61,105 bases of DNA from Acidobacteriota bacterium (GCA_003222385.1 QHVV01000032.1:1-61105); one strand, 5' to 3'; counted from the stretch's first letter, positions 5,810-39,924 are shown. A program made the numbers and translations. Notes: generated by a model from the sequence alone, not told the origin.

Positions 5810-6003
5810 AATCCGCACTTCCCGAGATAGCTGCTCTCGATCTGCGAAAGCATCTCTTCGATATCCGCGGTGGGAAACGAGTACCGGAGGGCGGCGCGAA
5901 CTGCCTCGATCTTTCTCCTCTCGCTTGAAACGGGATCCCTCCGGAGCGCAGTTCGGAGCGCACGGCGGACCCACACCGCCACTGTCGGGAGCCGCTCGCT
6001 CAT
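5806..6003 (-). CDS. small hypothetical protein (65 aa); tail resembles antitoxin-like helical proteins
   Basis: The third codon position is mostly G/C. Its TGA stop overlaps the kinase GTG start (GTGA at 5806..5809), the coupling pattern used throughout this window. Sequence ...[31 protein letters not shown]. No confident family assignment. Confidence 0.35.
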
Positions 6004-6098
6004 GTCTGTGGGTCCATCTTACTCACGTGTATCAGTCACTCGTTTGCACAAGGAAGGGATTCCTTGCTCCGTCCGGGATGACACAGGCAATGACCCGC

Positions 6099-14174: not shown

Positions 14175-16875
14175 CTATTTTCTTAACGCAGCCGGCCAGT
14201 TCGAAACGAGGGTGACGGGCGTGTTTTGCGCCGTTTGCGGAACAACCGCCATCAGCTCGCGATCGCCGCTCGGGTCGCTCCGGAGAAGGGTCGCATTGCT
14301 CGCGTCGAAAAGCACTCTCGGGACGCCGGTTTCGAATCCGGAGGCGTCGGCTTTCACCTGCACGGACATCTGATTCAGATCGAGCGAGAGATAGGTAATC
14401 TCCTTGCCGCCCCGGAGCCACTCGCCGCCCGAGGCTCCTCCGGCGGAAATCTGCCATTTGCTGCCCGGCCCGGGAAAGGGCGCGACGTAGAGCTCGGGCC
14501 TCCCGGACTCGTCCGACGTGTACAGGACCCACCGTCCGTCCGGAGAAAACCGCGAAAACTGTTCGTCGAACTGTGTTGCGAGAAAAGGGAACGGCTTGCG
14601 ATCGCCGAAAAGCGGCAGGATCCAGATGTCGGACTTCGTTTTGGCAGCCGCTGCGAGAGTTTCGTAGGCGAGATAGCGCCCGTCCGGCGACCACGCTTTT
14701 GGACAGATATCGCCGCTGCCCTGAAGGAGCGTCTCCTCTCCGCCGCCGCCGCTCGACGGCCTCGCGACGATCCTCGTGAGAAGCGTTTTCTCCATCCGGG
14801 TGAAGGCGATCCGGCTTCCGTCCGGAGACCAGACCGGACAGATCGATTCACCGGAGCCGAAACTGAAACGCGTCCGGGTGCCGCGGGCGAAGTCGGAGAG
14901 CCAGATGTCGCCGGCCCCGGTGGTCGAATCGGCGACTTCAGCGGCCAGGCGCTTTCCGTCCGGAGAGATCGAGAACATCCGGTAGTCGATCGGATCGCCG
15001 AACGGCGCGCCGATCGGCTTTCCCGATCGGTCGTACCACGCGAGGCGCGCCTTCGAGCCGCCGGTGCCGCCCGCGTAGACCAGGACCCCGTTGTCCGAAA
15101 CGGAGAAGGCCGCCCGGAAATAACTGGGATCGTAAAGAACCGAGTCGCCGAGCGGAACCGAGTCGCCCGTCAGACGAAGGCGCTTCGCGTCGAAGGGCTG
15201 AGCGAGGAGCGTCTTCTCGAGCACGTAGATCAGGTAGCCCGACGCGAAGGCGACGTTCGATCGGGCGTGAACAAGAAGCGTTCGATCTTTCGAGTCGAGG
15301 GACGCGAGGTAGATCACGTTCATCTCGCTTCCGGTGCCGGACGCGTGCGTTCCGGCCATGTAGAGGAAGTGGCGGCCGTCCGGAAGAAATCGATTCGTCG
15401 AGCCGCGTCACCGGAGTCGCGGCGCCGCCGCCGGCGGAGACGCGATCGACCGCGACGGTTGAATCGGGCGAGAAGAGAATCACCCCGTCCCGGTTCCAGG
15501 ATCCCGACCTTCCGCGCTTCGCATCGCACACTGTGAGGGGCGGCCCGCCGGCGGCGTCGACCTTCTTCAACTTCCCTTCCGCGAAGAACGCGATGAAGCG
15601 GCTGTCGGGGGACCAGAACGGCCACGTCGCGCCTTCCGTCCCCGGAATCGACCGGGCGGCGACGGCATCGAGCGGCCGGAGCCAGAGCAGCTTCTTGCCC
15701 GACGGATCTTTGGCCACGAACGTGATCCGCCGGCCGTCGGGGGATATGGTCAGCGATCCGGAGTCCTCGCCCCCGATCTCGAAAGCCGTCTTCTCCGGCG
15801 GCAGGATCGAGGAGCGGATCGGCGCGGTTTCGACCGGCGCCCGGCGGACATATCCCAATGTCGCGAACCCGGCCGCGAGAATCGCTCCAGCGGCAACACT
15901 CCAGGCCATGCGCTCCCGGCTTCGGCGCCGCGAGACGACGACCGCCGGCGCTCCCGCCTGCGAGCCGCCTTCGACGATCCATTGGAGCTGGAGCTTCGCG
16001 TCGTGCGCGGTCTGGAAACGATCCTCGGGGTCCTTTGCGAGACACGTGCGGACGACCCGATCGAACGCCGGCGGCGTCATCGGCTGGATCGTCGAGACTG
16101 GCACCGGCTCCTCCTTCATGATGTTCGAGATCAACGACGCCCGGCTCGTGCCGGAGAAAGCCTTCCGGCCCGTCGCCATTTCGTAGAGCACGACACCGAA
16201 GGAGAAGATGTCCGTGCGCGGATCGGCTTCGTGCCCTTCGAGCTGTTCGGGCGCCATGTACTGGAAGGTCCCGAGGATCGTCCCCTCCTGGGTGAGGTTC
16301 GCGCTCCCCACCACCGTTGGCAGGGCTGTGACGTTGGCTCCTGCCATGGGATGCTGCCCGGCCGCCGCTTGCTCCCTTCCGGTCGCGTCGAGCGACCGCT
16401 CCAGTGTCTTCGCCAGACCGAAGTCGAGGAGCTTAACTCCCGACTTCGTGAGCATCACGTTGCCCGGCTTCAGGTCGCGATGGACGATTCCCTGCCGGTG
16501 CGCCTTGTCGAGCGCGTCCGCGATCTCGATTCCGAAGCGAAGCACCTGCTCGGTCGGGAGAGCTCCCCGGGCGAGGCGATCCTCGAGCGTCTTCCCCTCG
16601 AGAAGCTCCATGACGAGGTACTCGATCCCGCTTTCGCGCCCGACGTCGTAGAGCGCGCAGATATGCGGGTGAGAAAGCTGCGAGATCGTGCGGGCCTCGC
16701 GCTCGAAGCGCTGGCGCACCTCTTCGGAGGAGGAGAGACGTTCCGGAAGGACTTTGATCGCGACGCTTCGATCGAGGCGGGTGTCGCGCGCCCGGTAGAC
16801 CTCGCCCATGCCGCCCGATCCGAGCAGCGCGAGGATCTCGTAAGGCCCCAGCCGGGTGCCCGATGTCAGCGGCAA
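14175..16875 (-). pseudogene. third Ser/Thr kinase / TolB-like beta-propeller paralog, disrupted by a frameshift near 15390
   Basis: Kinase, TM and the first propeller blades are in the frame of ORF 14938..16875. The remaining blades ([13 protein letters not shown]...NWPAALRK) are in the +1 frame of ORF 14175..15359. After RLDES the first frame becomes Arg-rich nonsense, and the second frame has a TGA at 15408..15410. Confidence 0.8.
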
Positions 16876-16914
16876 GGCGGGGTCAGGATATACCGCGACT
16901 TCGAAGCCCGAAGT

Positions 16915-27229: not shown

Positions 27230-28076
27230 CCCTCTCGTCCGAAACGTCTCGGACACGGCGCTCTGGGCCGCGGCCTACCGCGCGCGGGAAAACGACCGGC
27301 CGAACCCTCTCTTCCGCGATCCCTTCGCCCGCCGGCTCGCGGGAACGCGCGGTCTGCGGATCGCCGAGACGCTGACGGCCAGCGACTCGTGGGCGTGGGT
27401 CACGCGGACGTATCTCTTCGACCGGTTCATCCGGGAGCGCATCGCGCAGGACACCGACACCGTCGTGAACCTCGCGGCGGGCCTCGACTCGCGACCGTAT
27501 CGCATGGACCTGCCCGCGGCTCTCCGGTGGATCGAAGTCGACCTTCCCGATCTCCTCGCGTACAAGGAGGAAGCTCTCGCCGGCGAGAAGCCCCGTTGTG
27601 CTCTCGAGCGGATCGCTCTCGACCTGTCCGACGCGGCGGCGCGGCGGAGCCTCTTCGAGCGACTCGGCGGCGCGGGCAACGCTCTCGTCGTAACGGAAGG
27701 GCTCCTGATCTACCTGACGGCGGAAGAGGTTGCCATGCTGGCCGGGGATCTCACGCGGCCGGCGGCTTTCCGCCACTGGGTCCTGGACCTGGTCTCGCCC
27801 GGACTCCTTCGCATGCTCCAGAAGAAGACGAAAGGCGAGCTCGACGCCGCGGGGGCACCTTTGAAGTTCGGGCCGGCCGAAGGTCCCGGTTTCTTCCAGG
27901 CCTACGGCTGGCGCCCCGTCGAGGTCGCTTCGATCATCCAGTCGGCCGCGAAGCTCAAACAGCTCTCTTTTGGAATGCGGTTGATCGCGATGCTTCCCCA
28001 GTCCGACGGCCCGCAGGGATCCCGGCCGTGGGGCGGAGTCTGCCTGCTCGAACGAGAGCAGCGCCCGCCGCGCTGA
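27219..28076 (+). CDS. class I SAM-dependent methyltransferase, leucine-carboxyl-methyltransferase (LCM/TcmP-like) family
   Basis: …SDTALWAAAYRARE…LFRDPFA…VVNLAAGLDSRPYR…VVTEGLLIYL… is the typical PF04072-type pattern. Confidence 0.78.
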   Translation: MSSDPLVRNVSDTALWAAAYRARENDRPNPLFRDPFARRLAGTRGLRIAETLTASDSWAWVTRTYLFDRFIRERIAQDTDTVVNLAAGLDSRPYRMDLPAALRWIEVDLPDLLAYKEEALAGEKPRCALERIALDLSDAAARRSLFERLGGAGNALVVTEGLLIYLTAEEVAMLAGDLTRPAAFRHWVLDLVSPGLLRMLQKKTKGELDAAGAPLKFGPAEGPGFFQAYGWRPVEVASIIQSAAKLKQLSFGMRLIAMLPQSDGPQGSRPWGGVCLLEREQRPPR

Positions 28077-28080
28077 TTCG

Positions 28081-28644
28081 GTGAAATCCGGGCGGACTAC
28101 AGCCGTCCTCTGGCGGCGGCTCGACCGCCCCGGCCACGAAACCGCGCGGCTCCAGAGCGCCGGAACCGGCTGGGAGTTAGACGGCGCCGCGGTGTTCCTC
28201 CACAGAAAGGAGCCCTGCTCTCTGACCTACCGGATCGGGTGCGATTCGAACTGGCGGACCCGATCGGTCGAAGTCGCGGGATGGCTCGGGAAGAAGACGA
28301 TCCGCGTGGAGGCAAAGGTCGGGCGCGCCGGCGTCTGGAAGGTCGGCGGCGACGAAGTCTCCCGGATCGAAGGCTGCGTCGACGTCGATCTGAACTTCAG
28401 CCCGTCGACGAACCTGCTTCCGATCCGGCGCCTGAAGATCGCGGTCGGCGAGGAGCGGGAAGTCCGGGCGGCCTGGCTCGAGTTCCCGACCTTCCGCTTC
28501 GAGCCGCTCGAGCAGAGCTATCGGCGTCTCTCGCGGAACCGATACCGGTACCGCAGCGCGGGAGGGAAATTCGAGACCGACCTCGAAGTCGACGGCGACG
28601 GGTTCCCGACCCGATACCCCGGCTTCTGGGAACGGGTCGAATGA
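28081..28644 (+). CDS. putative glycolipid-binding domain (DUF1089-like) protein
   Basis: 187 aa. …VLWRRLDRPGHETARL…VDLNFSPSTNLLPIRRL… resembles my recollection of the Glycolipid_bind family. GTG start. Confidence 0.6.
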   Translation: MKSGRTTAVLWRRLDRPGHETARLQSAGTGWELDGAAVFLHRKEPCSLTYRIGCDSNWRTRSVEVAGWLGKKTIRVEAKVGRAGVWKVGGDEVSRIEGCVDVDLNFSPSTNLLPIRRLKIAVGEEREVRAAWLEFPTFRFEPLEQSYRRLSRNRYRYRSAGGKFETDLEVDGDGFPTRYPGFWERVE

Positions 28645-28677
28645 GCCGAAAGCGCGCTCGGCGCCGGTCGGATTCGG

Positions 28678-30711
28678 CTACCCCTCCAGCCGTTTCCTCG
28701 CGTTTCGCTCGAGAAGGAAGATGAGCACCGCGAACGCGATCGCGCAGAGGATCCCGCCGCTCACGAGACCGTTCTTGAGATCCGGATAGAGCTTCGTTCC
28801 CAGGTCGAGAAAGTCCGGAAGCGACGGGTGCTCCATGTGGAGAACGGTGTCGCCGAAGAATGCGACGAACGCGATCAAGACCCCGCCGAGCGAGCCCCCG
28901 GCGACGAGACCCGTGGCATAGAGCATTCCGGAGGAGAGCTCGGATTCTTCGCCGACGGCATGCTCCTTCCGCCGCCTCCAGGCATCGACCCAGGCCTTGA
29001 CCATGCCGCCGATCCAGATCGGCGCGGTCGTCGAGACCGGAAGATAGGCGCCGACGGCCCACGAAAGGGCGTGCGCCCCGGCAAGCTGCGCCATGAAGGC
29101 GAGGAAGACGCCGACCAGGACGGGCGCCCAGGGCAGGTTCTGCGCGAGCAGACCCTTGATGATCGTGGCCATCAACGTCGCTTGCGGGGCGGGAAGCTGG
29201 GGGCCGCCGATCCCGTGGAGCTCGTTCGGACCGCGGTATGTCCGGTCGAGCATGAAGAGCGTGATCGCGATGACGAAGGCGGACGTCACGACCCCGATCA
29301 CGAACCCGAGCTGCTGGGAGCGGGGCGTCGCCCCGACGAGATAGCCGGTCTTCAGGTCCTGCGACGTGGCCCCGGCGTTGGCCGCCGCGACGCAGACGAT
29401 CGCGCCGACGCAGAGAGCCACGGCCTGGTAGACGTCGCCTCTCCAGCCGATCACGACGAAGACGATGCACGTTGCCATCAGCGTCGCGATCGTCATCCCG
29501 GAGATCGGGTTGGAAGAGGTCCCGATGATGCCGACGATGCGGGAGGAGACCGTCACGAAGAAAAACCCGAAGACGACGATCAGGAGCGACATCAGGAGAG
29601 AGCCGGGGAAGGGCCCGTGCGGGAAGCCGGGCAGTATCGCCAGCACGAGCACGATCGCGAGCGATCCGATCACCACGATCCCCATCCCGAGGTCTCTCTC
29701 GGTTCGCCGGACGCCGGATGCCGGTCCGACTCCGCCCCGGAAGCTCTTGACCGACTCGCGGAACGCCGAAACGATGGTCGGCAGCGTCTTGATGAGCGTC
29801 ATCACTCCCGCGCAGGCGACCGCGCCCGCGCCGATGTAACGGATGTAGGCGCGATAGAGCCAGTTGGCGTAGGAGTTGTTCGCCATCCAGGCATCCGAGA
29901 AACCCAGGTTGTGGAGATCCTGCACCACGCGCGTCTCCGGTACGAAGATGGCGATCAGCGGGATCAGCGCCATCCAGGCGAGAAGCCCTCCCGAGAAGAG
30001 CTCCGACGAGATTCGCGGCCCGATGATGTAGCCCAGGCCCAGGTATTCCGGGGTCACCGCGACGTCGAGCGTGGCCGCTGGATACGTCGCGGACTCCTTC
30101 TTCGTCCGGAAGAAGATCGGGGCCTCCCGCCACAGGCCGAGGATCCCGTACAGGAACTTGTAGAGGAGCGATGCGCCGACCCCCGCGAAGACCATCCTGG
30201 CGAGGTTGCCGCCGCGCTCCCCCGCGATGAGGACGTCGGCGCAGGCCGTGCCCTCCGGATACGGCAGCTTCCCGTGCTCCTTGACGATGAGGGCGCGCCG
30301 CAGCGGGATCATGAAGAGGACGCCGAGCGTGCCTCCGAAGATCGCCAGGATCGTGATCTGGAAGTAGCGGAAGAAGTTCTCGCCTCCCGCAAGGAAGAGG
30401 AGAGCCGGGACCGTGAACACGACGCCCGCGGCGACGGATTCGCCGGCCGAGCCGATCGTCTGGACGATGTTGTTCTCCAGGATCGTCGACTTGCCGATCT
30501 TCTTGAAGACCGCGATCGCCAGGACCGCGATGGGCACGGACGCCGACACGGTCAGTCCGGCGCGCAGAGCGAGGTAAACGGTGGCCGCTCCGAAAAGAAC
30601 ACCGAAGACCATGCCGAGGATGATCGCTTTCGGCGTGAACTCGGCGGGCGCTTCGCCGGCCGGAACGTAGGGCCGAAACTCCGCGCCGGGCTTCTCGGGG
30701 ACGTTCGCCAT
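28678..30711 (-). CDS. OPT-family oligopeptide transporter
   Basis: 677 aa, polytopic. N-terminus …EFTPKAIILGMVFGVLFGAATVYLALRAGLTVSASVPIAVLAIAVFK is the characteristic OPT opening. AAGGAGG lies upstream of the ATG. Confidence 0.9.
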   Translation of the reverse strand: MANVPEKPGAEFRPYVPAGEAPAEFTPKAIILGMVFGVLFGAATVYLALRAGLTVSASVPIAVLAIAVFKKIGKSTILENNIVQTIGSAGESVAAGVVFTVPALLFLAGGENFFRYFQITILAIFGGTLGVLFMIPLRRALIVKEHGKLPYPEGTACADVLIAGERGGNLARMVFAGVGASLLYKFLYGILGLWREAPIFFRTKKESATYPAATLDVAVTPEYLGLGYIIGPRISSELFSGGLLAWMALIPLIAIFVPETRVVQDLHNLGFSDAWMANNSYANWLYRAYIRYIGAGAVACAGVMTLIKTLPTIVSAFRESVKSFRGGVGPASGVRRTERDLGMGIVVIGSLAIVLVLAILPGFPHGPFPGSLLMSLLIVVFGFFFVTVSSRIVGIIGTSSNPISGMTIATLMATCIVFVVIGWRGDVYQAVALCVGAIVCVAAANAGATSQDLKTGYLVGATPRSQQLGFVIGVVTSAFVIAITLFMLDRTYRGPNELHGIGGPQLPAPQATLMATIIKGLLAQNLPWAPVLVGVFLAFMAQLAGAHALSWAVGAYLPVSTTAPIWIGGMVKAWVDAWRRRKEHAVGEESELSSGMLYATGLVAGGSLGGVLIAFVAFFGDTVLHMEHPSLPDFLDLGTKLYPDLKNGLVSGGILCAIAFAVLIFLLERNARKRLEG

Positions 30712-30796
30712 GAGACCTCCTTAGACATGTTGCGGGGACAGGCCCTGCGGGCCTGCACCCGCCGCAGTTCAGAGCGGGGTCATCGAGTTGGCGGGG

Positions 30797-30802
30797 ATTA
30801 TA
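30797..30802 (-). promoter_or_regulatory. candidate -10 box (TATAAT on minus strand) for the OPT transporter
   Basis: Minus strand reads ...ATGACAAGAAGAAAGCTTCATATAATCCCC, about 85 nt upstream of the OPT ATG. The only -35-like hexamer (ATGACA) has a short 14-nt spacer, so support is weak. Confidence 0.3.
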
Positions 30803-30817
30803 TGAAGCTTTCTTCTT

Positions 30818-30892
30818 GTCATCCCCAGCGAAGCGAGGGATCTCTCCGTGATGGAAAATCAGATTCCTCGTCGCTTCGCTCCTCGGAATGAC
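30818..30892. repeat. palindromic REP/MITE-like element (GTCATCCCCAGCGAAGCGAGGGATCT ... AGATTCCTCGTCGCTTCGCTCCTCGGAATGAC)
   Basis: The two arms are imperfect reverse complements. The right arm is near-identical to the reverse complement of 37082..37113. Confidence 0.7.
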
Positions 30893-30931
30893 AACCATGA
30901 GGCGGCCTGCCCGGCCTGCCGGCTAAACCCC

Positions 30932-31147
30932 TCAGGTTCCTCCGAAGCCGATCGTGACCTTTCCGCCCTCGACGATGACCGGAACGCGCCGGCCGCCGGA
31001 AACGCGGATCATCCGGTCGAGCTCCCGCGCGTCGCGCTTCACGTCGATGTAGGTGAAGGGAATTTTCCGACGCGCGTAGTCCTCACGGGCCGCGGTCGTG
31101 TGGGGTCAGCCGTCCTTCCCGAAGATCTCGGTTCGCGTGGTTTCCAT
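30932..31147 (-). CDS. glutaredoxin-like protein with in-frame TGA at the redox-Cys position (candidate selenoprotein, U-P-H-T motif)
   Basis: Not in the ORF track. Reverse complement reads METTRTEIFGKDG[TGA]PHTTAAREDYARRKIPFTYIDVKRDARELDRMIRVSGGRRVPVIVEGGKVTIGFGGT*. GGAGG lies 4 nt upstream of the ATG. TGA at 31106..31108. The full Grx fold exists only if the TGA is decoded. Confidence 0.65.
31069..31097 (-). promoter_or_regulatory. candidate bacterial SECIS-like stem-loop downstream of the in-frame UGA
   Basis: mRNA positions +9..+37 after the UGA read GACCGCG GCCCGUGAGGACUA CGCGCGUC. The pairing is GAC-CGCG with CGCG-(C bulge)-GUC, and the apical region contains a GU. Folded by eye only. 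Confidence 0.35.
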
Positions 31148-31207
31148 CCGACCTCCGCGCCGATCATAAGCCGGCGTGCCGATTTCGGGCTATCATCGAA
31201 AAGACGC

Positions 31208-31903
31208 ATGGCGGCGCGCTTTTCCGTCGTCGGGGGGCTCGTTTTCCTCCTTTCTTTCATGGCTTTCGGCCCCCGCGCCGCGGGCTCCGCCGGTTCCGTG
31301 AGCGGTCGGATCGTGCTCGCGAAGTCGGGCACTCCGCGAGCCGACGCATCCAACGCCGTCGTGTGGATCGAAGGCCCGCGCGGGGCGACCGGATCCGCCG
31401 CCCCGCTTCGAATGGCGCAGGAGTCGAAGCGCTTCGTCCCCCGGGTCCTGATCGTGCCGCGGCACGGGACCGTCGAGTTCCCGAACGACGACCCGGTCTT
31501 CCACAACGTCTTCTCCGTTTCGGGAGCGAACCGGTTCGACCTCGGGCTCTACCGAAGCGGCGCCTCGAAGAGCCGGACTTTCGCGGAGCCCGGCCTCGTC
31601 CGCGTCTACTGCAACATCCACCCGCAGATGGTCGGGTTTCTGATGGTCGTCGATTCCGGCTTCGGCGCCATCACCGGCAAGGACGGGGTCTTCCACTTCG
31701 AAGGGGTGCCCGCCGGCTCGTGGACGATCAAGGCCTGGCACGAAGAAGGATCGGAAACGAGCGTCCCGCTGTCCATCCCGCTCGCCGCGGGCGCGCCGCT
31801 CATCCTCACGATCGACACGACCGCTTACCGCCCCGTCCCGCACAGGAACAAGTACGGCAAGGAGTATCCGCCGCAGTCGGGATCGGACGATGAGCGCTAC
31901 TGA
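31208..31903 (+). CDS. secreted amicyanin-like type-1 copper (cupredoxin) protein with C-terminal carboxypeptidase-regulatory-like domain
   Basis: Start is the ATG at 31208 (signal-like MAARFSVVGGLVFLLSFMAFG). Cu-ligand pattern FPNDDPVFHNV ... YCNIHPQM (H99, C135-x2-H138-x2-M141), the same spacing as amicyanin CTPHPFM. Then GKDGVFHFEGVPAGSWTIKAWHE. Confidence 0.75.
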   Translation: MAARFSVVGGLVFLLSFMAFGPRAAGSAGSVSGRIVLAKSGTPRADASNAVVWIEGPRGATGSAAPLRMAQESKRFVPRVLIVPRHGTVEFPNDDPVFHNVFSVSGANRFDLGLYRSGASKSRTFAEPGLVRVYCNIHPQMVGFLMVVDSGFGAITGKDGVFHFEGVPAGSWTIKAWHEEGSETSVPLSIPLAAGAPLILTIDTTAYRPVPHRNKYGKEYPPQSGSDDERY

Positions 31904-33998
31904 AAGAGCGACTCCGGCTCCGATCACGATCGTTCCACGGGTCGCGAGCGGCCTGAAGCTCCCGCCGCCCGAGCCGCCCCGATTCTCGCTATCGTTCAAG
32001 ATCTTCTTCGCGGCGGCGCTCCTGATCCTGGTCGCCGTGGGCGGAGCGATCGCGATTTCCGCGGCCCGCGCCCGCTCGATCGCCGACTCGAAGATCGCGG
32101 AGGACCTGAAGAAATCGGGGGGCGCCTGGGAGTCGTTTCAGCGCAACCGGTACGACGAGCTCCACCGGGCTCTGGCGGTCGTGGTCAACAACGCCGGGAT
32201 CATCTCGGTCATGACGCAACTCGACCCGACGACCGCGCGGGACACGCTGAAGCTCGAGCAGGCATCGAGTACGCGCGCGAATTTCCTCGTCGCCATCAAC
32301 CAGGAAGGCACGGCGTTCGCGCGCACCGACCGGCCGCTCCCATACTCCCGCGACATGCGCGGCGTTCCCACGGTTGCCTCGGCCCTGCAGGGCGAGGCCG
32401 CGGAAGGGATCTGGCTGTCGGACCAGCATCTGTACCACGTCGTGGCCGCTCCCGTGCTGGAAGGGGGCAGCCGCTCGGTCGGCGCGATCGCCGCGGGTTT
32501 CCAGATCAACGACGAAGTCGCCGCCAGCCTGAAGTCGCTCGTCAACGCCGAAGTGGTTTTCCTCGCCGACGGGGCGCGCCTGAACGAGCCGGCGAAACCG
32601 GTCGTCGCCGCGTCGACGATGAAAGACGCGAACGCTTCCGTCCTCTCGGCGATCCGGAACACTCCGCACCTCGTCCCCGTCGTCCTGCGGGAAGGCAAGA
32701 CAATCGGGCCCCTGGAGCTCGAAGTCTCCGGCGATACGTACCTCGCGTACTTCTTGCCGATCCGCTCGTCCACCGATCAGCTCGTGGGCGCGGCGGTGAC
32801 CCTGCGAAGCCGCGAGCGCGAGCTCGCTCCTTTCCGGCGGATTCAGAACAGCCAGGTCCTCGTGGGGCTCGCGGCGCTGGTGTTCGCATTCGTTCTGTCC
32901 TTTGTCCTCGCCCGCCGGATCACGGGACCCGTGGATCGGCTGGTCCGCGCGGCCGAGGCGGTGCGGATTGGAGACCTCGGAACGGAGGTGCCGGTCGAGT
33001 CGAACGACGAGATCGGGATCCTCGCGCGCTCGTTCAAGGCGATGCTCGAGGAGCTGAAGGAGAAGGCGGCGCTCGAGAAGTACGTGGCCTCGCTCCCCAT
33101 CTCGATCGGCGGAGAAGAAACTCTGCTCGCGGGGCGCACGCCCACGGCCGCCAGCGGGAGCGTGACGTCGCAGAACGAGCCGCAGATCGGCACGCTCTTC
33201 GCCGGCCGCTACGACATCCAGTCGATCCTGGGCAAGGGAGGCATGGGGATCGTCTACAAGGCGCACGACCGCGAGCTCGACGACCTCGTCGCGATCAAGA
33301 CCCTTCGGAGCGAGGTCCTTTCCGCCGACCCGACTCTGCTCGATCGGTTCAAGCAGGAGATCCGACTGGCGCGCCGCATCACGCACCCGAACGTACTCCG
33401 CACGCACGATCTCGGCGAGTGGAACGGGCTGCGGTACCTGTCGATGGAGTTCGTGAAAGGGCTGACCCTGAAGCATCTTCTCGAGTCGGACGAAATCCTC
33501 CCGACGCCGGTCGGTCTGCGCATCGCCAAGCAGGTCTGCGCGGGCCTCGCCGCGGCGCACGAGGTCGGGGTCATCCATCGCGACGTCAAACCGCAGAACA
33601 TCCTGATCGAGCCGACCGGGGGTCTCAAGATCATGGACTTCGGCATCGCCCGTCTGACGGAGGACCGCGGGATGACCGCCACGGGTACGGTCATCGGCAC
33701 GCCGGATTACATGTCGCCCGAGCAGGCGCGCGGAGTCCCGCTCGACTTCCGGTCCGACATCTACTCGACCGGTATCGTCCTCTACGAAGTCTTCAGTGGT
33801 TCTCTCCCGTTCGACCTCGCCGTGGTCCTGAAGCACGTCAACGAGCCGCCGCCGCTCCCGCAGTCGAAGAATCCGCGGATCGACCCGAAGATCGCGGTCA
33901 TCATCATCAAGTGCATGCAGAAGGAGCCGGCCGCGCGATACCAGAGCGTCGGGGAGCTGTACGAGGCACTGGCGAAGGTGACGGCCCAGGCCGCGTGA
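31890..33998 (+). CDS. membrane sensor Ser/Thr kinase: TM, ~290-aa periplasmic Cache-like domain, TM, HAMP, coiled coil, C-terminal kinase
   Basis: TM1 FKIFFAAALLILVAVGGAIAI. TM2 plus HAMP VLVGLAALVFAFVLSFVLARRITGPVDRLVRAAEAVRIGDLGTEVPVESNDEIGILARSFKAM. Kinase motifs GKGGMGIVYKA, HRDVKPQNILI, DFGIAR, GTPDYMSPEQ. Overlaps the upstream cupredoxin gene by 14 nt. Confidence 0.88.
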   Translation: MSATERATPAPITIVPRVASGLKLPPPEPPRFSLSFKIFFAAALLILVAVGGAIAISAARARSIADSKIAEDLKKSGGAWESFQRNRYDELHRALAVVVNNAGIISVMTQLDPTTARDTLKLEQASSTRANFLVAINQEGTAFARTDRPLPYSRDMRGVPTVASALQGEAAEGIWLSDQHLYHVVAAPVLEGGSRSVGAIAAGFQINDEVAASLKSLVNAEVVFLADGARLNEPAKPVVAASTMKDANASVLSAIRNTPHLVPVVLREGKTIGPLELEVSGDTYLAYFLPIRSSTDQLVGAAVTLRSRERELAPFRRIQNSQVLVGLAALVFAFVLSFVLARRITGPVDRLVRAAEAVRIGDLGTEVPVESNDEIGILARSFKAMLEELKEKAALEKYVASLPISIGGEETLLAGRTPTAASGSVTSQNEPQIGTLFAGRYDIQSILGKGGMGIVYKAHDRELDDLVAIKTLRSEVLSADPTLLDRFKQEIRLARRITHPNVLRTHDLGEWNGLRYLSMEFVKGLTLKHLLESDEILPTPVGLRIAKQVCAGLAAAHEVGVIHRDVKPQNILIEPTGGLKIMDFGIARLTEDRGMTATGTVIGTPDYMSPEQARGVPLDFRSDIYSTGIVLYEVFSGSLPFDLAVVLKHVNEPPPLPQSKNPRIDPKIAVIIIKCMQKEPAARYQSVGELYEALAKVTAQAA

Positions 33999-34008
33999 GT
34001 CCGAAAAC

Positions 34009-35088
34009 GTGAAACGGGGAATCCTGCTCCTCGTGCTGACGGCGTCCGGGGCGGTCCCCGCCGGCGCGCAGCAGACCGAGTACTTCGAGCCGCCGCCTCC
34101 GCGGCCGAAGTTCACGCTCAAGTGGGAGGCGCTCTTTCGCTACGACTCGATCTACCACCTCCGGGTGCGTCCGGACATCGAGCGCGGCCGCTTCGAGTTC
34201 CGGCCGGAGGTCGCGTTCGAGCCGTCCGACCGGTGGAAAATCGGAGTCCGCGCGCTCGGGAACCTCGGCACTGACCACAACGATCAGAACGCGCGCAACT
34301 TCGACAACTATCGTTCCCGGGGCGCGACCCTCGATCGCTGGTACGTAGAGGCGAGACCCGGCGGCTGGATCGTTCTCGCGGGGAGTTTCGGAATGCCGCT
34401 CGTTTCGAGCGAGATGCTCTGGGACCGGGACATCCAGACCCCGGGCGCGGCGGTGTCACGCCAGATCGCGACCGGGCTTTCGAGCCTGACCTTCACGGCG
34501 GCCGGGTTCTATGGCCCTCAGCGGGAGGGAGACCGATCCCGAATCGGGGCCGGACAGGCCGTCTGGCGCGGCGGAGACGCCAACCGATTCCAGGTCGAGG
34601 CCGCCGCCGCCTACTGGACGTTCGACCTGGACCGGCTGAAGTCGCACTTCGTCCGGCAGAACAGTCCCGAGTCGTATCCCGGCGGCCAGAAGTTCGAAAG
34701 CGATTTCCGGCTCGCGGATCTCCTCCTGCGATTCCGCTTCCTCGCTCTGCGTCTGCCGGTGACCGTCTCTTTCGACGGGATTCACAACTTTGCGGGACCC
34801 GGCGGTCAGCGGGACGCCCTCGAGGGCGCGGTCGCGGTGGGGTCCGTTGGCACTCCCGGGACCTGGCGGGCGTTCTACATCTACCAGTACGTCGAGCGGG
34901 ACGCGGTGGTCGGCGCCTACAACACCGACGACTGGTGGTTTCACTCGCGCTACCAGGGGCATCGGATCGGCGCCGCCTTCACGGTGCTGCCGCAGGTTTT
35001 CGTCCAGGCGGCGATCGTGTTCCAGCGGCGGCTCGACTTGAAAGCGACGTTGAACCGGATCACGGTCGATCTGGTGAAGATGTTCTGA
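34009..35088 (+). CDS. putative outer-membrane beta-barrel porin
   Basis: GTG start and signal peptide (KRGILLLVLTASGAVPAGAQQ). Alternating amphipathic strands, C-terminal ...VDLVKMF ending in Phe. Confidence 0.65.
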   Translation: MKRGILLLVLTASGAVPAGAQQTEYFEPPPPRPKFTLKWEALFRYDSIYHLRVRPDIERGRFEFRPEVAFEPSDRWKIGVRALGNLGTDHNDQNARNFDNYRSRGATLDRWYVEARPGGWIVLAGSFGMPLVSSEMLWDRDIQTPGAAVSRQIATGLSSLTFTAAGFYGPQREGDRSRIGAGQAVWRGGDANRFQVEAAAAYWTFDLDRLKSHFVRQNSPESYPGGQKFESDFRLADLLLRFRFLALRLPVTVSFDGIHNFAGPGGQRDALEGAVAVGSVGTPGTWRAFYIYQYVERDAVVGAYNTDDWWFHSRYQGHRIGAAFTVLPQVFVQAAIVFQRRLDLKATLNRITVDLVKMF

Positions 35089-35110
35089 GGACAGATAGAA
35101 TCCCTTCCCC

Positions 35111-35518
35111 ATGAACCGCTCCATCCTGGCATGCGTGGAGGACCTCTTCTTCCGGTCCAAAATCGAAGCGACCGGCCGTCACCTGAACGTGTCGGTGCGT
35201 TTCGCGGACTCGAAGGATCTGGCCGCGGCCGCGCGCCAGGAGGACACCGCCGCCATTCTCCTGGAGCTCTCGACGAACGGCGCCTGTTTCGATGCGGTGC
35301 GCAAGCTGCGGCAGCAGGCGGAGACCCGGGATCTGCCGGTGATCGGGTTCCTGCGCCACACCGATCGGGAACTGGCGAAGCAGGCCGAGGCGGCGGGTCT
35401 GACCCGCGTGCTGCCGAGGAGCGAGTTCTCGGAAACCCTTCCCGATCTGGTCATGGATCTACTCGCCCCCGGCACGAAGCGCGAGATTCCGGAAGAGCCC
35501 GAGCTGCCGGACGAGTAG
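35111..35518 (+). CDS. stand-alone degenerate receiver (REC-like) domain protein
   Basis: CheY-like layout: ILACVEDLFF (beta1), AAILLELS (beta3, Glu where the phospho-Asp is expected), LPVIGFL (beta4), AGLTRVLPRSEF (beta5, no obvious Lys). Alignment by eye. Confidence 0.6.
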   Translation: MNRSILACVEDLFFRSKIEATGRHLNVSVRFADSKDLAAAARQEDTAAILLELSTNGACFDAVRKLRQQAETRDLPVIGFLRHTDRELAKQAEAAGLTRVLPRSEFSETLPDLVMDLLAPGTKREIPEEPELPDE

Positions 35519-35525
35519 CCGTCGC

Positions 35526-36659
35526 ATGGCTCGAGGCGTGCGCGGCCCGACGCGGCGCGACATCATCCGGTCGGCCGCGATTCTTCCTGTGGTCGCTCAG
35601 GTTCGAACGAGAGCTCCAGCTCGCGCGGCGTCACTTCCGGTCGTCATCGCGTCGGCGAACATGAAGAGCCCGACCGAATCCGGCGGCCTGAACGCGGTCC
35701 GCAAGGCCTGGGAGATCCTGGCGGCGGGAGGAGATCCGGTCGATGCCGTCGTGTCCGGCGTGAATCTCGTCGAGAACGACCCGGACGACGTCACGGTCGG
35801 ATACGGCGGGATCCCGAACGAAGAGGGGGTCGTCCAGCTCGACGCCTCGGTGATGGACGGTCGGACGATGAAGGCCGGCGCGGTCGGTGCCCTCGAGCGG
35901 ATCAAGAACCCTTCGAAGGTCGCCCGGCTCGTGATGGAGAGAACCAACCGTGTCTTCGTGGTCGGAGAAGGGGCGCTCAAGTTCGCGAAAGCCCACGGCT
36001 TTGCCGAAGAGAACCTCCTGACCGAGCGTTCCCGGAAAATCTGGCTCTACTGGAAGGAGAAGCTGTCGGGCAAGGACGACTGGATGCCGGCCGGGAACGA
36101 GGAGGAAAAGGACCCCGACATCCGCTGGTACATCGAGAAATACGGCGTGGAGGACTTCCGGCCGCAGGGCACCATCAACTGCGACGCGGTCACCGCGAGC
36201 GGCGACATCGTCGGGACGACGACGACATGCGGCCTGTTTTTCAAAATCCCCGGGCGCCTGGGCGACTCGCCGGTCATCGGGGCCGGTCTCTACGTCGACA
36301 ACGACGTCGGCGCCTGCGGCTCGACCGGCTGGGGAGAAGGGAACCTCCGCTCCTGCGGATCTCATACCGTGGTCGAGATGATGCGCCAGGGGAAGTCGCC
36401 CGAGGAGGCGGCTCTGAAAACGCTCGAGAGGATCGTCGCGTTCGCGAAGGACAACCGGGAGAGCTCGGGCCGTCCGAAATTCCAGACCGTGTTCTACGCG
36501 GTCAACAAACGCGGCGAATACGCCGGAGCCTCCGTTTACGACGGCGCGTACGGCTCGACCGGCCGGTTCTCGCGTGCGAAGTTCGCGGTCGCCGACTCCT
36601 CCGGCGCGCGCCTCCTGGAGACCGCGTACCTGTTCAAGAAGGAGAAGCCCTCGCGCTGA
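35526..36659 (+). CDS. Ntn-hydrolase, glycosylasparaginase / isoaspartyl peptidase (asparaginase 2) family, Tat-type signal
   Basis: TRRDIIRSAAIL twin-Arg motif. QGTINCDAVTASGDIVGTTTTCGLFFKIPGRLGDSPVIGAGLYVD parallels HDTIG...GTSTNG..FK..GRVGDSP.PGAGAY of glycosylasparaginases. Confidence 0.85.
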   Translation: MARGVRGPTRRDIIRSAAILPVVAQVRTRAPARAASLPVVIASANMKSPTESGGLNAVRKAWEILAAGGDPVDAVVSGVNLVENDPDDVTVGYGGIPNEEGVVQLDASVMDGRTMKAGAVGALERIKNPSKVARLVMERTNRVFVVGEGALKFAKAHGFAEENLLTERSRKIWLYWKEKLSGKDDWMPAGNEEEKDPDIRWYIEKYGVEDFRPQGTINCDAVTASGDIVGTTTTCGLFFKIPGRLGDSPVIGAGLYVDNDVGACGSTGWGEGNLRSCGSHTVVEMMRQGKSPEEAALKTLERIVAFAKDNRESSGRPKFQTVFYAVNKRGEYAGASVYDGAYGSTGRFSRAKFAVADSSGARLLETAYLFKKEKPSR

Positions 36660-36668
36660 GGCGCTCGA

Positions 36669-36941
36669 TCAGGGCGTCGGGCTCGGTCCGCGGCCTCCCG
36701 AGAGAATCGAGTTGACGGCGTCGATGCGGCGCTCGAGTACGCGGCGGAGCTTCCCGATCTCGGAATCGCCTGCCGCGACGCGCACGCTGTCTCCCTGGAA
36801 CTCGAAACGCAGGATCGCATCCCGGTCCTCGCGGGTCATCCCGAGGATTCCGGCGCGGTAGGCGCGCATCCACTCCGGCGAGGGCTCGGAGTCGAAACGC
36901 AGGCGGAACCAGGTCTTTCCGTCGGCCGCCCCCTCCGCCAT
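36669..36941 (-). CDS. hypothetical protein (90 aa)
   Basis: ATG at 36941 with GAGG 6 nt upstream (the track start 36965 is a GTG further up). Sequence MAEGAADGKTWFRLRFDSEPSPEWMRAYRAG... No family recognised. Confidence 0.45.
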   Translation of the reverse strand: MAEGAADGKTWFRLRFDSEPSPEWMRAYRAGILGMTREDRDAILRFEFQGDSVRVAAGDSEIGKLRRVLERRIDAVNSILSGGRGPSPTP

Positions 36942-37081
36942 CGGCGCCTCGTTCGAGAGATACACGCGGTGGGTGGGGGGCGCTTCGCCGGGGCGGCGCC
37001 GGTTGGGCTTGCGGTACTGGGGTCTTCTGGGAATCGGAGCCTCCTTGGTCGAACCCGCGGGAGATTCTATCCCGGCGCCTT

Positions 37082-37209
37082 GTCATTCCGAGGAGCAAAG
37101 CGACGAGGAATCTCCGGCCCTATAGGGAAAAGATTCCTCGCGGAGCCTGCTCTGAGCGGAGCACTCACTTGGAAACGACGTCGGGATTCCTCGCTGCGCT
37201 CGGAATGAC
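37082..37209. repeat. composite copy of the GTCATTCCGAGG...GGAATGAC palindromic element
   Basis: Outer arms GTCATTCCGAG (37082..37092) and CTCGGAATGAC (37199..37209). Inner hairpin CGAGGAATCT (37104..37113) / AGATTCCTCG (37131..37140). The left arm is about the reverse complement of 30862..30892. Confidence 0.7.
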
Positions 37210-37237
37210 AGCCTGGGGCGAAGGGCTCGGAATGATC

Positions 37238-38563
37238 TCACGCGTCGAACGAGCCGGCCGAGACGATCGTGAACCGGTCCGGGTCCACGCGCTTCGCGAA
37301 GGCGGCGTCCGCCTCTTCCCGGGTGACCGCCCCGACGAGGGACGGGTACTCGTCGAGATAGGAGACGCCGAGCCCGTAGTAGACGGCGGCGTCGATCGCA
37401 TGCGCGATCCCGCCGTTCGACGCGAGGTCTACCTTGAAGCGTCCGACGTGAGAGCTCTGCTCGTCGGCGAGCTCCTTCGGCGTCATCCCTTCCCGGCGGA
37501 AGCGAACGATCTCCTCGAGCGTCGCGGCGACCGCCGCGTCGCGGCTCTCCGGCTTGACCGTGAGGCTGACGGAGAACGGCCCGGCGAGGTGGGTCGCCGC
37601 GAAACCGGAATGGATTCCGTACGTCAGACCCTCGGTGTCGCGAACCCGCACGCCCAGCCGCGACGTGAGCGACGACTGGCCGAGCGCCGAGTTGGCGAGG
37701 ATGCACGCGACGTACTCCGGGTCCAGTCTCGCCAGGTCCGACGGCTGGGCGAGGACGACGTCCGCGCTCGCTTTGTCCGGCATCCGAATCGATTCGGAGC
37801 CGGGGGCCGCAGGGACCGGATCCGGTTTCGGGATCTCGGCAGCGGGGCCGAGCCGCCAGGAACCGAGCCGCCGCTCGAGCCCGTCCAGCATCTTCCCGGA
37901 ATCCACGTCGCCGACCAGAACGAGGAGAAGCGTCCCGGCGCCGTACCGCTCTTCGTAGAACCGGACGAGCTCGTCGCGGGAGACCGACTCGACGGCGGCG
38001 ATCCGCTCTTCGACGGGCCGCCGGTAGAAGGGGTGACCGGGAGGATAGATCCGCCGGTACGCGGCCTCGAACGCCCGGACGGACGTCTCGTCCTGCTGCT
38101 CGCGGAGCACACCCACCAGCCGCTTGCGCTCTTTCTCGAGCTCCTCTTCCGGGAACCGGGGCGAAAGAAGGACCTCCGCGAGGACGTCGAGCAGCACTTC
38201 CACGTCGCGCGAGAGCGACGCGGCGGCGATGTCCACGCCGACCGGGTCCCCGCCGCCCGCCGAGAAGGAGAGGCTCGCGCCGCGGCTCTCGAGCTCCTCC
38301 GCGATCTCGAGCTTGGTCGAGCGGGAGGTGCCCTTCGCGAGCTCGCCGGCCGTCACCGACGCGAGGAGCCGCCGGTCGGGCGGCGCAAAAAGACTCCCGC
38401 CGTTCATCGATCCCGAAACCGCGACGGTCGGATTGAACCGGTTCTCGAGCACGAAAAGACGCGCGCCGTTGCCAAGGGTGCGGCGGCGAACCGACTCCTC
38501 GAAAGACGCCCTGCGACGCGGAAACACCGATGCCTTCGCGGCGCCGGGGACGGGGCCCGTCAC
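37238..38563 (-). CDS. M16-family peptidase, non-catalytic (beta-type) subunit
   Basis: GTG at 38563 overlaps the stop of the upstream M16 gene (GTGA). M16 fold pattern without an HxxEH motif. The N-terminal 335 codons of the track ORF 37238..39568 are an alternate frame of the upstream gene. Confidence 0.82.
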   Translation of the reverse strand: MTGPVPGAAKASVFPRRRASFEESVRRRTLGNGARLFVLENRFNPTVAVSGSMNGGSLFAPPDRRLLASVTAGELAKGTSRSTKLEIAEELESRGASLSFSAGGGDPVGVDIAAASLSRDVEVLLDVLAEVLLSPRFPEEELEKERKRLVGVLREQQDETSVRAFEAAYRRIYPPGHPFYRRPVEERIAAVESVSRDELVRFYEERYGAGTLLLVLVGDVDSGKMLDGLERRLGSWRLGPAAEIPKPDPVPAAPGSESIRMPDKASADVVLAQPSDLARLDPEYVACILANSALGQSSLTSRLGVRVRDTEGLTYGIHSGFAATHLAGPFSVSLTVKPESRDAAVAATLEEIVRFRREGMTPKELADEQSSHVGRFKVDLASNGGIAHAIDAAVYYGLGVSYLDEYPSLVGAVTREEADAAFAKRVDPDRFTIVSAGSFDA

Positions 38564-39924
38564 GCTGCCGGCGGTTCCTTCGGAAGGTAGAGTCCGGTGG
38601 TCAGCCCATCGTCGCGAAAGTAGCTCGCCGCGACACGGCGGACGTCGGCGGCAGTCACGCTGGCCACCAGGTCGGGATAGTCCGCGTACCAGTCCCAGTC
38701 GGCGACCGCGATCGCCTGGGAAAGCGAGGCGGCGACCTGGTCTGTCGAGTCCCGGTCGAAGATCACCTCGGCCTCGATCTGGGTCCGCGCCTTCTGCGCT
38801 TCCTCTTCGGTGATGCCTTCGGAAACGACTCGGGCGACCTCCCGCCGGATCCGCGCCTCGACGTCTCCGGGCAGGACGCCCGGCCGCACGGGCGCGAAGA
38901 TCGAGAACAGGGCGGGATCGCGAAGCTGCCAGGGGACGACCGTCACCGAGAGAGCGAGGCTCTCCTCGACCAGCGCGAGATGGAGTCGCGCCGTCAGGCC
39001 AACGCCGAGGATGTTTCCGAGGACGGCCAGTGCGGCGGTATCGGGATGCCGCGCCTCGACCGTTCTCCAGGAGAGCGCGAGCCACGCGATCTGCGCGGTC
39101 CGTCGAACGACGAAGCGCCTCTCCCCCTCCTGCGGCGGCTCCACGGTGTAGACGGGCGGAATCGGACGCGCCGACGCCGGAATCAGGCCGAAGTGCCGAG
39201 CGACCGTCGCGAGCGCCTCGCGCTCCTCGAAGTCGCCGATCAGGATCGCCGTCGCGTTGTTCGGATGGTAGAAGACGTCGTAGAACTCCTTCAAGCGGTG
39301 GGTCGAGACGCTCTCGATGTCCGTGCGCCATCCGATCGTCGGATGGTGGTACGGATGCTCCCGGAACGCCGTGGCGAACGTGTCCTTGTACAGCACCTGG
39401 AAGGGAGAGTTCTCGCCTCGCTCGTACTCGTTGCGCACGACGGTCATTTCCGGGACCCGGTCGGAATCGCGCAGGAGGGCGCCGCGCATCCGTGACGCTT
39501 CGATGCGCACGGCGGTCTCGATCGAGTCGGAGGGAACGGTCTCGTAGTAGTTCGTCCGGTCGAACCACGTCGTGGCGTTGAACCGCGCCCCCAGGGCCTC
39601 GAGCACCGCGGCGATCGCCGTTCCCTTCTCGCGGTCGAACTCCGGAGTTCCCTTGAACATCAGGTGCTCGAGGAGATGGGTCGCGCCCGTGTGTCCGACC
39701 GCTTCGTTGCGGCTGCCCACGCGGTAGACGACCGCGAACGTGGCGACGGGCGCGACGTCATTGGAGAGCAGCAGCGTCTGGAGGCCGTTCGAGCGGAGCC
39801 GGAATTCGCGGATGCCCGCCTTTTCCCGGACGAAATCGAAATCCGGATGTCCCGGGAGAGCGTCGGAGACGCCGTTTTCGGAAAGGGGGACTTCGGCCGG
39901 GCGACTCTCGACTCGGGTCTCCAA
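38560..39924 (-). CDS. M16-family zinc peptidase (pitrilysin family), catalytic subunit
   Basis: GHTGATHLLEHLMFKGT contains the inverted zincin motif HxxEH. 454 aa. Confidence 0.9.
   Translation of the reverse strand: METRVESRPAEVPLSENGVSDALPGHPDFDFVREKAGIREFRLRSNGLQTLLLSNDVAPVATFAVVYRVGSRNEAVGHTGATHLLEHLMFKGTPEFDREKGTAIAAVLEALGARFNATTWFDRTNYYETVPSDSIETAVRIEASRMRGALLRDSDRVPEMTVVRNEYERGENSPFQVLYKDTFATAFREHPYHHPTIGWRTDIESVSTHRLKEFYDVFYHPNNATAILIGDFEEREALATVARHFGLIPASARPIPPVYTVEPPQEGERRFVVRRTAQIAWLALSWRTVEARHPDTAALAVLGNILGVGLTARLHLALVEESLALSVTVVPWQLRDPALFSIFAPVRPGVLPGDVEARIRREVARVVSEGITEEEAQKARTQIEAEVIFDRDSTDQVAASLSQAIAVADWDWYADYPDLVASVTAADVRRVAASYFRDDGLTTGLYLPKEPPAA

Follow-up and report, generated by a model that had tools for sequence, protein, structure and literature searches.

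Cupredoxins are textbook electron shuttles, and to our knowledge the signals of most bacterial Hanks-type kinases are still unknown. Control of a signalling enzyme by a separate ligand- or cofactor-binding protein encoded beside it is familiar from H-NOX and NosP, which pair with a histidine kinase or a diguanylate cyclase, and from LuxP–LuxQ and TorT–TorS. In the cell envelope, YfiBNR of Pseudomonas aeruginosa and HmsCDE of Yersinia pestis are redox-responsive systems in which a periplasmic regulator works with a HAMP sensor of the inner membrane and a partner in the outer membrane (PMC3375315, PMC4887326, PMC5550408). Here, we describe a locus within a 61,105-nt stretch of DNA from an Acidobacteriota bacterium (GCA_003222385.1, QHVV01000032.1:1-61105; the whole stretch is hereafter termed the window), in which a gene for a secreted cupredoxin (gene 1) overlaps a gene for a transmembrane sensor Ser/Thr kinase (gene 2) and is followed by genes for a porin (gene 3) and a stand-alone receiver-like protein (gene 4). 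Our favoured explanation, to which we assign a probability of roughly 0.55 on comparative sequence evidence, is that genes 1 and 2 encode a two-protein periplasmic sensing unit, in which the cupredoxin would act as a metal-state-dependent co-receptor of the dCache_3 sensor. In literature searches, we found no published account of coupling between a cupredoxin and a Cache sensor, a Hanks kinase or a cyclic di-GMP (c-di-GMP) enzyme, in agreement with an earlier reading of the DNA alone (the sequence-only reading), which knew of no described system with this architecture; a mention of dCache_3 in PMC8694187 was discarded as a false text match rather than a prior description.

An open reading frame (ORF) listing of the window places the four genes close-packed on the + strand at 31208-31903, 31890-33998, 34009-35088 and 35111-35518, with a 14-nt overlap between genes 1 and 2, a 10-nt gap between genes 2 and 3, and a 22-nt gap between genes 3 and 4, in agreement with the spacings given by the sequence-only reading. 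A promoter and terminator scan of 30600-37300 returned no promoter-like site and terminator-like matches that were all intragenic, and an Rfam scan of 28000-37500 gave no match.

Gene 1 (31208..31903, +) encodes a protein of 231 amino acids (aa) that was characterized by its ORF, its motifs, phmmer searches of the PDB, an AlphaFold2 (AF2) model and Foldseek. Its N-terminus is hydrophobic, with a signal-like segment at aa 1-27, and a cupredoxin domain occupies approximately aa 60-148 (31385..31651, +). The translation contains FHNVFS and YCNIHPQM, providing candidate type-1 copper ligands His99 (31502-31504), Cys135 (31610-31612), His138 (31619-31621) and Met141 (31628-31630) with a C-x2-H-x2-M ligand loop. 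In phmmer searches against the PDB, aa 76-147 align with the C-terminal cupredoxin domain of NirK, a Nitrosopumilus blue-copper protein, pseudoazurin and amicyanin, and the His, Cys, His and Met of gene 1 fall on the ligand positions of these solved cupredoxins. These alignments bear out both the intact ligand set and the amicyanin-type spacing that had been read from the sequence. All four ligands are strictly conserved across alignments A1, A2 and A7, over sequence identities of around 30%, and both ligand motifs occur in 170 of the 171 homologues from all loci. The AF2 model (predicted local distance difference test score, pLDDT, 80.5) retrieved amicyanin, pseudoazurin and plastocyanin in Foldseek, with target template-modelling (TM) scores of 0.57-0.78, E values of 1e-5 to 1e-7, and root-mean-square deviations of 2.3-2.9 Å for the best-superposed matches. 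By modelled fold and ligand position, gene 1 thus has the features of a type-1 cupredoxin, with predicted copper binding and a putative type-1 site geometry. Assignment as amicyanin itself was rejected: at 15.7 bits, the match to TIGR02657 falls far short of the 110.2-bit cut-off, and there are no mau genes nearby.

The remainder of the protein is distinctive. A CarboxypepD_reg-like immunoglobulin (Ig) sandwich domain, which the sequence-only reading had placed after the cupredoxin, is represented by its C-terminal part at aa 150-203 (31655..31816, +). In the window protein the Pfam match is sub-threshold (22.9 bits versus a cut-off of 32.3, aa 150-202), whereas a homologue exceeds the threshold at 35.8 bits. 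The match spans only positions 28-79 of the 82 in the profile, and in the AF2 model the cupredoxin is preceded by strands at aa 28-39 and 51-55. Given the partial match and these two strands, the segment of aa 28-55 (31289-31372, +) probably supplies the first two strands of the Ig sandwich, into which the cupredoxin would be inserted as a nested domain. At the C-terminus lies a conserved tail, PHRNKYGKEYPPQSGSDDERY (aa 209-231; 31832..31900, +), with the core H-x-x-K-x-G-x-x-Y; the H, K, G and Y of this core do not vary in A1 or A7, although the tail is modelled with low confidence (pLDDT 41-61). The motif P-H-K-N-K-[FY]-G-K-D-Y is present in 163 of 171 homologues, often terminating in ERY-COOH, and is a feature of acidobacterial kinase-paired cupredoxins but not of the proteobacterial relatives paired with GGDEF-EAL proteins, discussed below. 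The tail may be a docking peptide for kinase-type sensors.

A longer version of gene 1, starting from a GTG at 30848, was considered and rejected, as homologues are ~230 aa long and the additional stretch holds an opposite-strand selenoprotein gene; given homologue lengths of 229-231 aa, the ATG at 31208 is preferred. The family is large: a word-indexed search recovered 4,409 proteins, and an exhaustive search recovered 12,535 clusters at 50% identity with E ≤ 1e-3, or 5,108 with E ≤ 1e-10. Among the relatives, five proteins of 800-3,178 aa (P0258, P0262, P0264, P0270 and P0292) carry 5-10 tandem cupredoxin modules, and in three others (P0242, P0246 and P0248) the whole two-domain unit is tandemly duplicated.

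Gene 2 (31890..33998, +) encodes a protein of 702 aa. Two hydropathy-defined transmembrane segments (aa 38-56, 32001-32057, and aa 318-336, 32841-32897; both +) bracket a periplasmic dCache_3 domain at aa 57-317 (32058..32840, +), which scores 43.9 bits against a Pfam cut-off of 25.7. This is followed by a HAMP domain at aa 339-391 (32904..33062, +; 54.4 bits, cut-off 25) and a Hanks-type kinase domain at aa 441-684 (33210..33941, +; Pkinase E value 2.6e-48), in which the GKGGMG, VAIK, HRDVKPQN, DFG and SPE motifs are all intact in the translation. Gene 2 is therefore a dCache_3-HAMP transmembrane receptor with a Hanks-type Ser/Thr kinase. The domain order of the sequence-only reading is confirmed by Pfam, although its estimate of ~290 aa for the periplasmic region is revised by hydropathy to about 260 aa. 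The region spanning the second transmembrane segment and HAMP (aa 283-390) also gave a sub-threshold match to NF053592 (42.4 bits versus 194). Three further ORFs with Hanks-type kinase domains occur in the window, at 3-2597, 3158-6022 and 14941-16914 (all -), with phmmer E values of 1e-41 to 1e-49; none has a dCache_3 or HAMP sensor region.

The evidence linking the two proteins comes from their conserved pairing. A genome scan yielded 80 loci, all from Thermoanaerobaculia or Acidobacteriota metagenome-assembled genomes, and exact look-up added three more. In each of the 81 informative Thermoanaerobaculia genome loci, a sensor-kinase gene directly follows the cupredoxin gene, and the 14-nt overlap recurs in the three closest loci viewed gene by gene. 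Loci with longer sequence continue with the kinase, then the porin, then usually the receiver-like gene. Metagenomes were scanned with A7, an alignment of diverse representatives, and neighbours were classified with local hidden Markov models; among the 58 loci that extend 500 nt or more past the cupredoxin gene, a same-strand gene with a periplasmic domain and HAMP is directly downstream in 55, with one additional convergent case. Pkinase is present in all 25 distant metagenome loci with enough sequence, one clade of which belongs to Vicinamibacteria. Neither the porin nor the receiver-like gene occurs in the 14 distant loci whose downstream sequence reaches 4.5 kb or more, and in distant loci the cupredoxin-kinase pair is instead flanked by unrelated opposite-strand genes, such as those for an M28 peptidase or an ACT-domain protein, so that it looks like a self-contained bicistron. 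Since distant loci keep the pair without the porin and receiver and with other flanking genes, the conserved unit is the cupredoxin-kinase bicistron, and the four-gene architecture suggested by the sequence-only reading does not hold as that unit. The order of the pair itself, which had been put forward as a check on a co-sensor role, is conserved across related genomes. So, too, is the isolation of the cupredoxin from redox enzymes: no oxidoreductase partner lies near it in any sensor-type locus examined. The earlier observation that this locus encodes no dehydrogenase or reductase for the cupredoxin to serve is thereby extended to the neighbourhoods examined, and the suspicion that the family might usually adjoin an oxidoreductase is not borne out in sensor-type loci.

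The pairing extends to a second phylum, where the output differs. A tblastn search of plasmids recovered homologues of gene 1 with 28-34% identity over the aligned proteins and all four ligands kept, annotated as 'methylamine utilization protein' or 'carboxypeptidase regulatory-like'. NCBIfam holds no model for this cupredoxin family, whether for the window protein or for the proteobacterial 'methylamine utilization proteins'; with no mau genes and no NCBIfam model behind the label, a methylamine utilization function for the family was rejected. In 17 of 17 plasmid loci from Burkholderiales and Sphingomonadales, the cupredoxin homologue precedes a homologous dCache_3-HAMP sensor, which in hosts including Comamonas, Novosphingobium (two strains), Caballeronia, Burkholderia and Paraburkholderia comprises a dCache_3 domain between two transmembrane segments followed by HAMP and GGDEF-EAL. 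The pairing is reciprocal: a reverse search with the N-terminus of the Comamonas sensor matched 15 of 72,556 plasmids, and a cupredoxin homologue adjoins the sensor in all 15. Homology of the periplasmic segments across phyla is indicated by phmmer searches of a small local database, with E values of 1e-9 for the window protein versus the proteobacterial sensor of L093 and of 1e-5 to 1e-8 for those of L085 and L086 versus acidobacterial kinases. Pairwise BLASTP of the window periplasmic region against the proteobacterial sensors gave no significant match, and the sensors of both phyla belong to the Pfam family dCache_3. It is the sensor domain, and not the output, that travels with the cupredoxin.

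Proteobacterial operons usually add two genes upstream of the cupredoxin, encoding a DUF3034 protein and a group 1 truncated haemoglobin. DUF3034 carries a signal peptide and ends in an aromatic residue (F or Y), as outer-membrane barrels do, and is probably one itself. The truncated haemoglobin carries a clear signal peptide in Caballeronia. The operon of DUF3034, truncated haemoglobin, cupredoxin and dCache_3-HAMP-GGDEF-EAL is seen at L087 3560-7893 (also in L084, L086, L091-L094 and L175), and the juxtaposition of a cupredoxin and a secreted truncated haemoglobin is itself unusual. On the Caballeronia sp. SBC1 plasmid pSBC1_4 (L084 6590-7006), the sensor after the cupredoxin has shrunk to a 138-aa Cache fragment, probably a decayed sensor copy.

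These observations suggest a mechanism in which the secreted type-1-copper-like protein would be the co-receptor of the membrane receptor's dCache_3 domain. Depending on whether its metal site is in the Cu(I) or the Cu(II) state, or is loaded or empty, the cupredoxin would engage the sensor differently, and HAMP would pass the change across the membrane to a cytoplasmic output, namely the Hanks Ser/Thr kinase in Acidobacteriota or the GGDEF-EAL module in Proteobacteria. A cupredoxin that keeps its sensor domain while the output is exchanged is the pattern expected of a receptor with its co-receptor. The invariance of the ligands argues for an important metal centre, and the proteobacterial truncated haemoglobin points to redox or gas sensing. 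In Thermoanaerobaculia, the Porin_5 protein might be an addition for signal entry or an anchoring or sequestering partner, comparable to YfiB for YfiR, and the cytoplasmic pseudo-receiver might serve as a substrate or adaptor of the kinase. More tentatively, and with a little less confidence than we place in the unit at this locus, the pair may represent a large family of periplasmic blue-copper co-receptors, sensing redox state, oxygen or copper for dCache_3-HAMP receptors, that would comprise thousands of 50%-identity clusters in at least Acidobacteriota and Proteobacteria, with Ser/Thr phosphorylation or c-di-GMP as output.

Several observations weigh against the co-receptor interpretation or narrow it. 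Co-transcription could be explained by co-regulation of the two proteins rather than by complex formation, and 3 of the 58 metagenome loci lack a same-strand sensor gene immediately after the cupredoxin. Only Thermoanaerobaculia-type loci have the porin and pseudo-receiver, and the pseudo-receiver is missing from 6 of 64. Moreover, a divergent OPT transporter gene has a position as conserved as those of the operon genes in these loci, so class-level synteny alone cannot separate function from ancestry and is no proof that either the porin or the receiver is part of the system. Profile-profile comparison found no similarity between the porin and DUF3034; a common outer-membrane component is therefore unsupported by homology, and that component may be coincidental. 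Finally, a remote rhizobial branch (L088 4797-5513 and L090 5049-5429), with the loop C-D-A-H-G-W-M, adjoins SCO, metallophosphoesterase and cbb3 oxidase genes with no sensor. This branch may be concerned with copper delivery or respiration, and given its context the cupredoxin family is not exclusively a signalling accessory. Comparative genomics supports the co-sensor proposal of the sequence-only reading in part: the linkage of cupredoxin and sensor is upheld in two phyla, and the inclusion of the porin and receiver in the conserved unit is not.

The rhizobial relatives, with their respiratory and copper-assembly neighbours, also lend weight to an alternative based on co-expression only, in which the cupredoxin is an ordinary electron carrier or oxidase partner whose level is set or matched by the sensor, while the Cache domain binds a small ligand of its own. 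The fold and ligands of gene 1 are indeed those of electron-transfer cupredoxins, and Cache domains usually bind small molecules. Nevertheless, we consider this explanation unlikely: no redox enzyme is linked to the pair in any sensor-type locus examined, a Ser/Thr kinase or c-di-GMP enzyme needs no electron carrier, and the pairing is reciprocal and survives an exchange of output across phyla. The SCO copper chaperone adjoining the rhizobial relatives, the invariant copper-ligand set and the presence of an outer-membrane channel gene in the same operon could alternatively reflect copper homeostasis, with a CopI-like periplasmic copper buffer or chaperone, a sensor responding either to copper itself or to the copper-loaded protein, and a porin that admits copper. 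The rigidity of a type-1 site, which makes it a poor exchangeable copper buffer, renders such a role improbable, as do the lack of efflux pump, multicopper oxidase or CopA/CusA-type genes in the neighbourhoods examined and the proteobacterial truncated haemoglobin, which suggests gas or redox sensing over metal sensing.

A tripartite layout of outer-membrane protein, periplasmic protein and HAMP sensor, present in both Thermoanaerobaculia and Proteobacteria, has its precedent in YfiBNR (PMC3375315, PMC4655355) and could mark a sensor of envelope stress or of the outer membrane, where the cupredoxin/Ig-like protein would be a repressor sequestered by the barrel and the metal site would be structural. 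Vicinamibacteria-type units without an outer-membrane gene, the unrelatedness of the porin and DUF3034, and the strict conservation of all four ligands, which argues for a functional metal centre, make this quite improbable. The least probable reading is that the two genes have no functional link and that their order is inherited synteny. The positional conservation of the unrelated OPT gene in Thermoanaerobaculia is what such a reading would predict, yet the pair is kept in Vicinamibacteria-type loci where every flanking gene differs, and in another phylum with a different output; we regard synteny alone as strongly disfavoured already. The metal-dependent co-receptor thus remains our preferred explanation for genes 1 and 2.

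Gene 3 (34009..35088, +) encodes an outer-membrane protein of 359 aa with a Porin_5 (PF16930) match of 35 bits (cut-off 22), a signal-like N-terminal segment and the C-terminus ...VKMF. The terminal Phe is shared by 63 of 63 homologues, consistent with the signal-peptide β-barrel ending in Phe that had been described from the sequence. On these family features gene 3 is assigned to Porin_5 with a predicted barrel; profile searches of the PDB with the porin, and likewise with DUF3034, gave no useful match.

Gene 4 (35111..35518, +) encodes a stand-alone protein of 135 aa with no Pfam or NCBIfam match, including none to Response_reg. An AF2 model built from 27 sequences (pLDDT 84.9) has the (βα)5 topology of the CheY fold, and nearly all of the top 50 Foldseek matches in the PDB are receiver domains (query TM scores 0.63-0.77), including FrzS of Myxococcus. 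A profile match to the RpfC receiver (E value 0.0076) was also obtained. The acceptor position is occupied by Glu52 (35264-35266), with 41 Glu to 7 Asp among homologues, and the conserved Lys position by Arg103, which is Arg in 64 of 64 homologues. Gene 4 was therefore rejected as a canonical receiver, as it lacks the acceptor Asp at the end of β3 and has Arg for Lys; the receiver-like call in the sequence-only reading agrees with the modelled fold, and pseudo-receiver is the better name. A disordered acidic tail, APGTKREIPEEPELPDE (APGTKRE..EEPELPDE), is invariant and includes Thr122 (35474-35476), with Thr in 63 of 64 homologues. The 590 homologues of gene 4 all fall within the same clade. 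A receiver-like gene follows the porin in 58 of 64 Thermoanaerobaculia-type loci and is absent from the other six (L022, L027, L039, L042, L058 and L060), despite more than 2.5 kb of sequence in each. Phosphorylation of response regulators on Thr by Hanks kinases is known from several bacteria, and the pseudo-receiver is the likeliest candidate for a substrate or adaptor of the kinase, with Thr122 in the tail as the candidate site.

Outside the four genes, the region upstream of gene 1 contains a gene that an ORF lister does not see because of an in-frame TGA. This glutaredoxin-like gene of 70 codons (30935..31147, -) belongs to UXX-star selenoprotein family 1, scoring 103.7 bits in NCBIfam (cut-off 72) with Cys put for the TGA. 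The TGA is codon 14, in the context METTRTEIFGKDG[U]PHTT..., and it is at the same position in 69 of the 69 related loci that have the gene. Its start is 60 nt from that of gene 1, in divergent orientation, and the gene lies inside a 496-nt region that would otherwise appear intergenic. A hairpin that starts 11 nt past the UGA is positioned as a bacterial selenocysteine insertion sequence (SECIS) would be, but it is no more stable than shuffled sequence (z-score -0.49). Further upstream, a divergent OPT-family transporter gene (28678..30711, -), identified by Pfam and neighbourhood scans, is present in all Thermoanaerobaculia-type loci with enough sequence, at 75-97% identity, which is above that of the operon genes; it was seen only in loci of this type and not in other metagenome loci.

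Downstream, a candidate fifth gene encoding an Asparaginase_2 (N-terminal nucleophile hydrolase) protein by Pfam (35526..36659, +) begins 7 nt past gene 4, with a twin-arginine-like N-terminus, TRRDIIRSAAIL; like the selenoprotein gene, it had escaped the sequence-only reading. Only about half of the related loci have this gene, which is probably outside the signalling unit, although it may be co-transcribed with the operon in this genome. Two M16 peptidase genes follow at 37238-39924 (-). The OPT transporter, M16 peptidases and asparaginase give the neighbourhood a peptide-scavenging flavour, and the operon might regulate these genes.

If the co-receptor explanation is correct, it would give cupredoxins a role in signalling, define extracytoplasmic sensing by a metalloprotein as a new class and point to a candidate for the signal that a membrane Hanks kinase receives. 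It would also show how the abundant but poorly understood Acidobacteriota of soil read the redox, oxygen or copper status of their periplasm. Culturable Burkholderiaceae, Comamonas and Novosphingobium encode the same module together with c-di-GMP enzymes, so that the hypothesis is already amenable to genetic testing in them.

The comparison with known systems can now be drawn at the level of each component. Gene 1 shares with amicyanin, pseudoazurin and plastocyanin a secreted β-sandwich fold, and with amicyanin the same His...Cys-x2-His-x2-Met pattern. Unlike these proteins, it is fused with, and probably interrupts, a CarboxypepD_reg Ig-like domain and bears a conserved C-terminal tail, and its relatives in sensor-type loci adjoin a dCache_3-HAMP sensor rather than a methylamine dehydrogenase or reductase. 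Gene 4 has the receiver fold of atypical receivers, with Myxococcus FrzS among its structural matches, but differs from canonical receivers in its Glu (sometimes Asp) acceptor, its Arg in place of Lys, the absence of an output domain and its invariant acidic tail. The proteobacterial DUF3034 operon, for which we found no experimental work in the literature, is the counterpart with both a homologous cupredoxin and a homologous sensor domain, in the same order and with tight spacing. It differs in its c-di-GMP turnover, in a cupredoxin without the H-x-x-K-x-G-x-x-Y tail, and in having a truncated haemoglobin and DUF3034 in place of Porin_5 and the pseudo-receiver.

YfiBNR and HmsCDE similarly encode a periplasmic accessory protein, an inner-membrane PAS/Cache-like-HAMP sensor and an outer-membrane partner in one operon, but their output is a diguanylate cyclase only, whereas the pairs studied here have a Ser/Thr kinase or GGDEF-EAL. 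In addition, YfiR, which is no metalloprotein, has no sequence relationship to gene 1, and YfiB is an OmpA-like lipoprotein where gene 3 is a porin-type barrel. Pfam and NCBIfam scans of the locus proteins detected none of the YfiR (DUF4154), YfiN or YfiB families, and the resemblance to YfiBNR is one of logic, not ancestry. H-NOX and NosP, the other accessory proteins that control a neighbouring signalling enzyme, are cytoplasmic haem proteins, and LuxP and TorT are periplasmic small-molecule binding proteins; none of these pairs uses a blue-copper centre. Set beside them, the cupredoxin and its dCache_3-HAMP sensor would form an accessory-protein-coupled receptor of a recognizable kind, and what is new is the class of accessory, which is of the blue-copper type.

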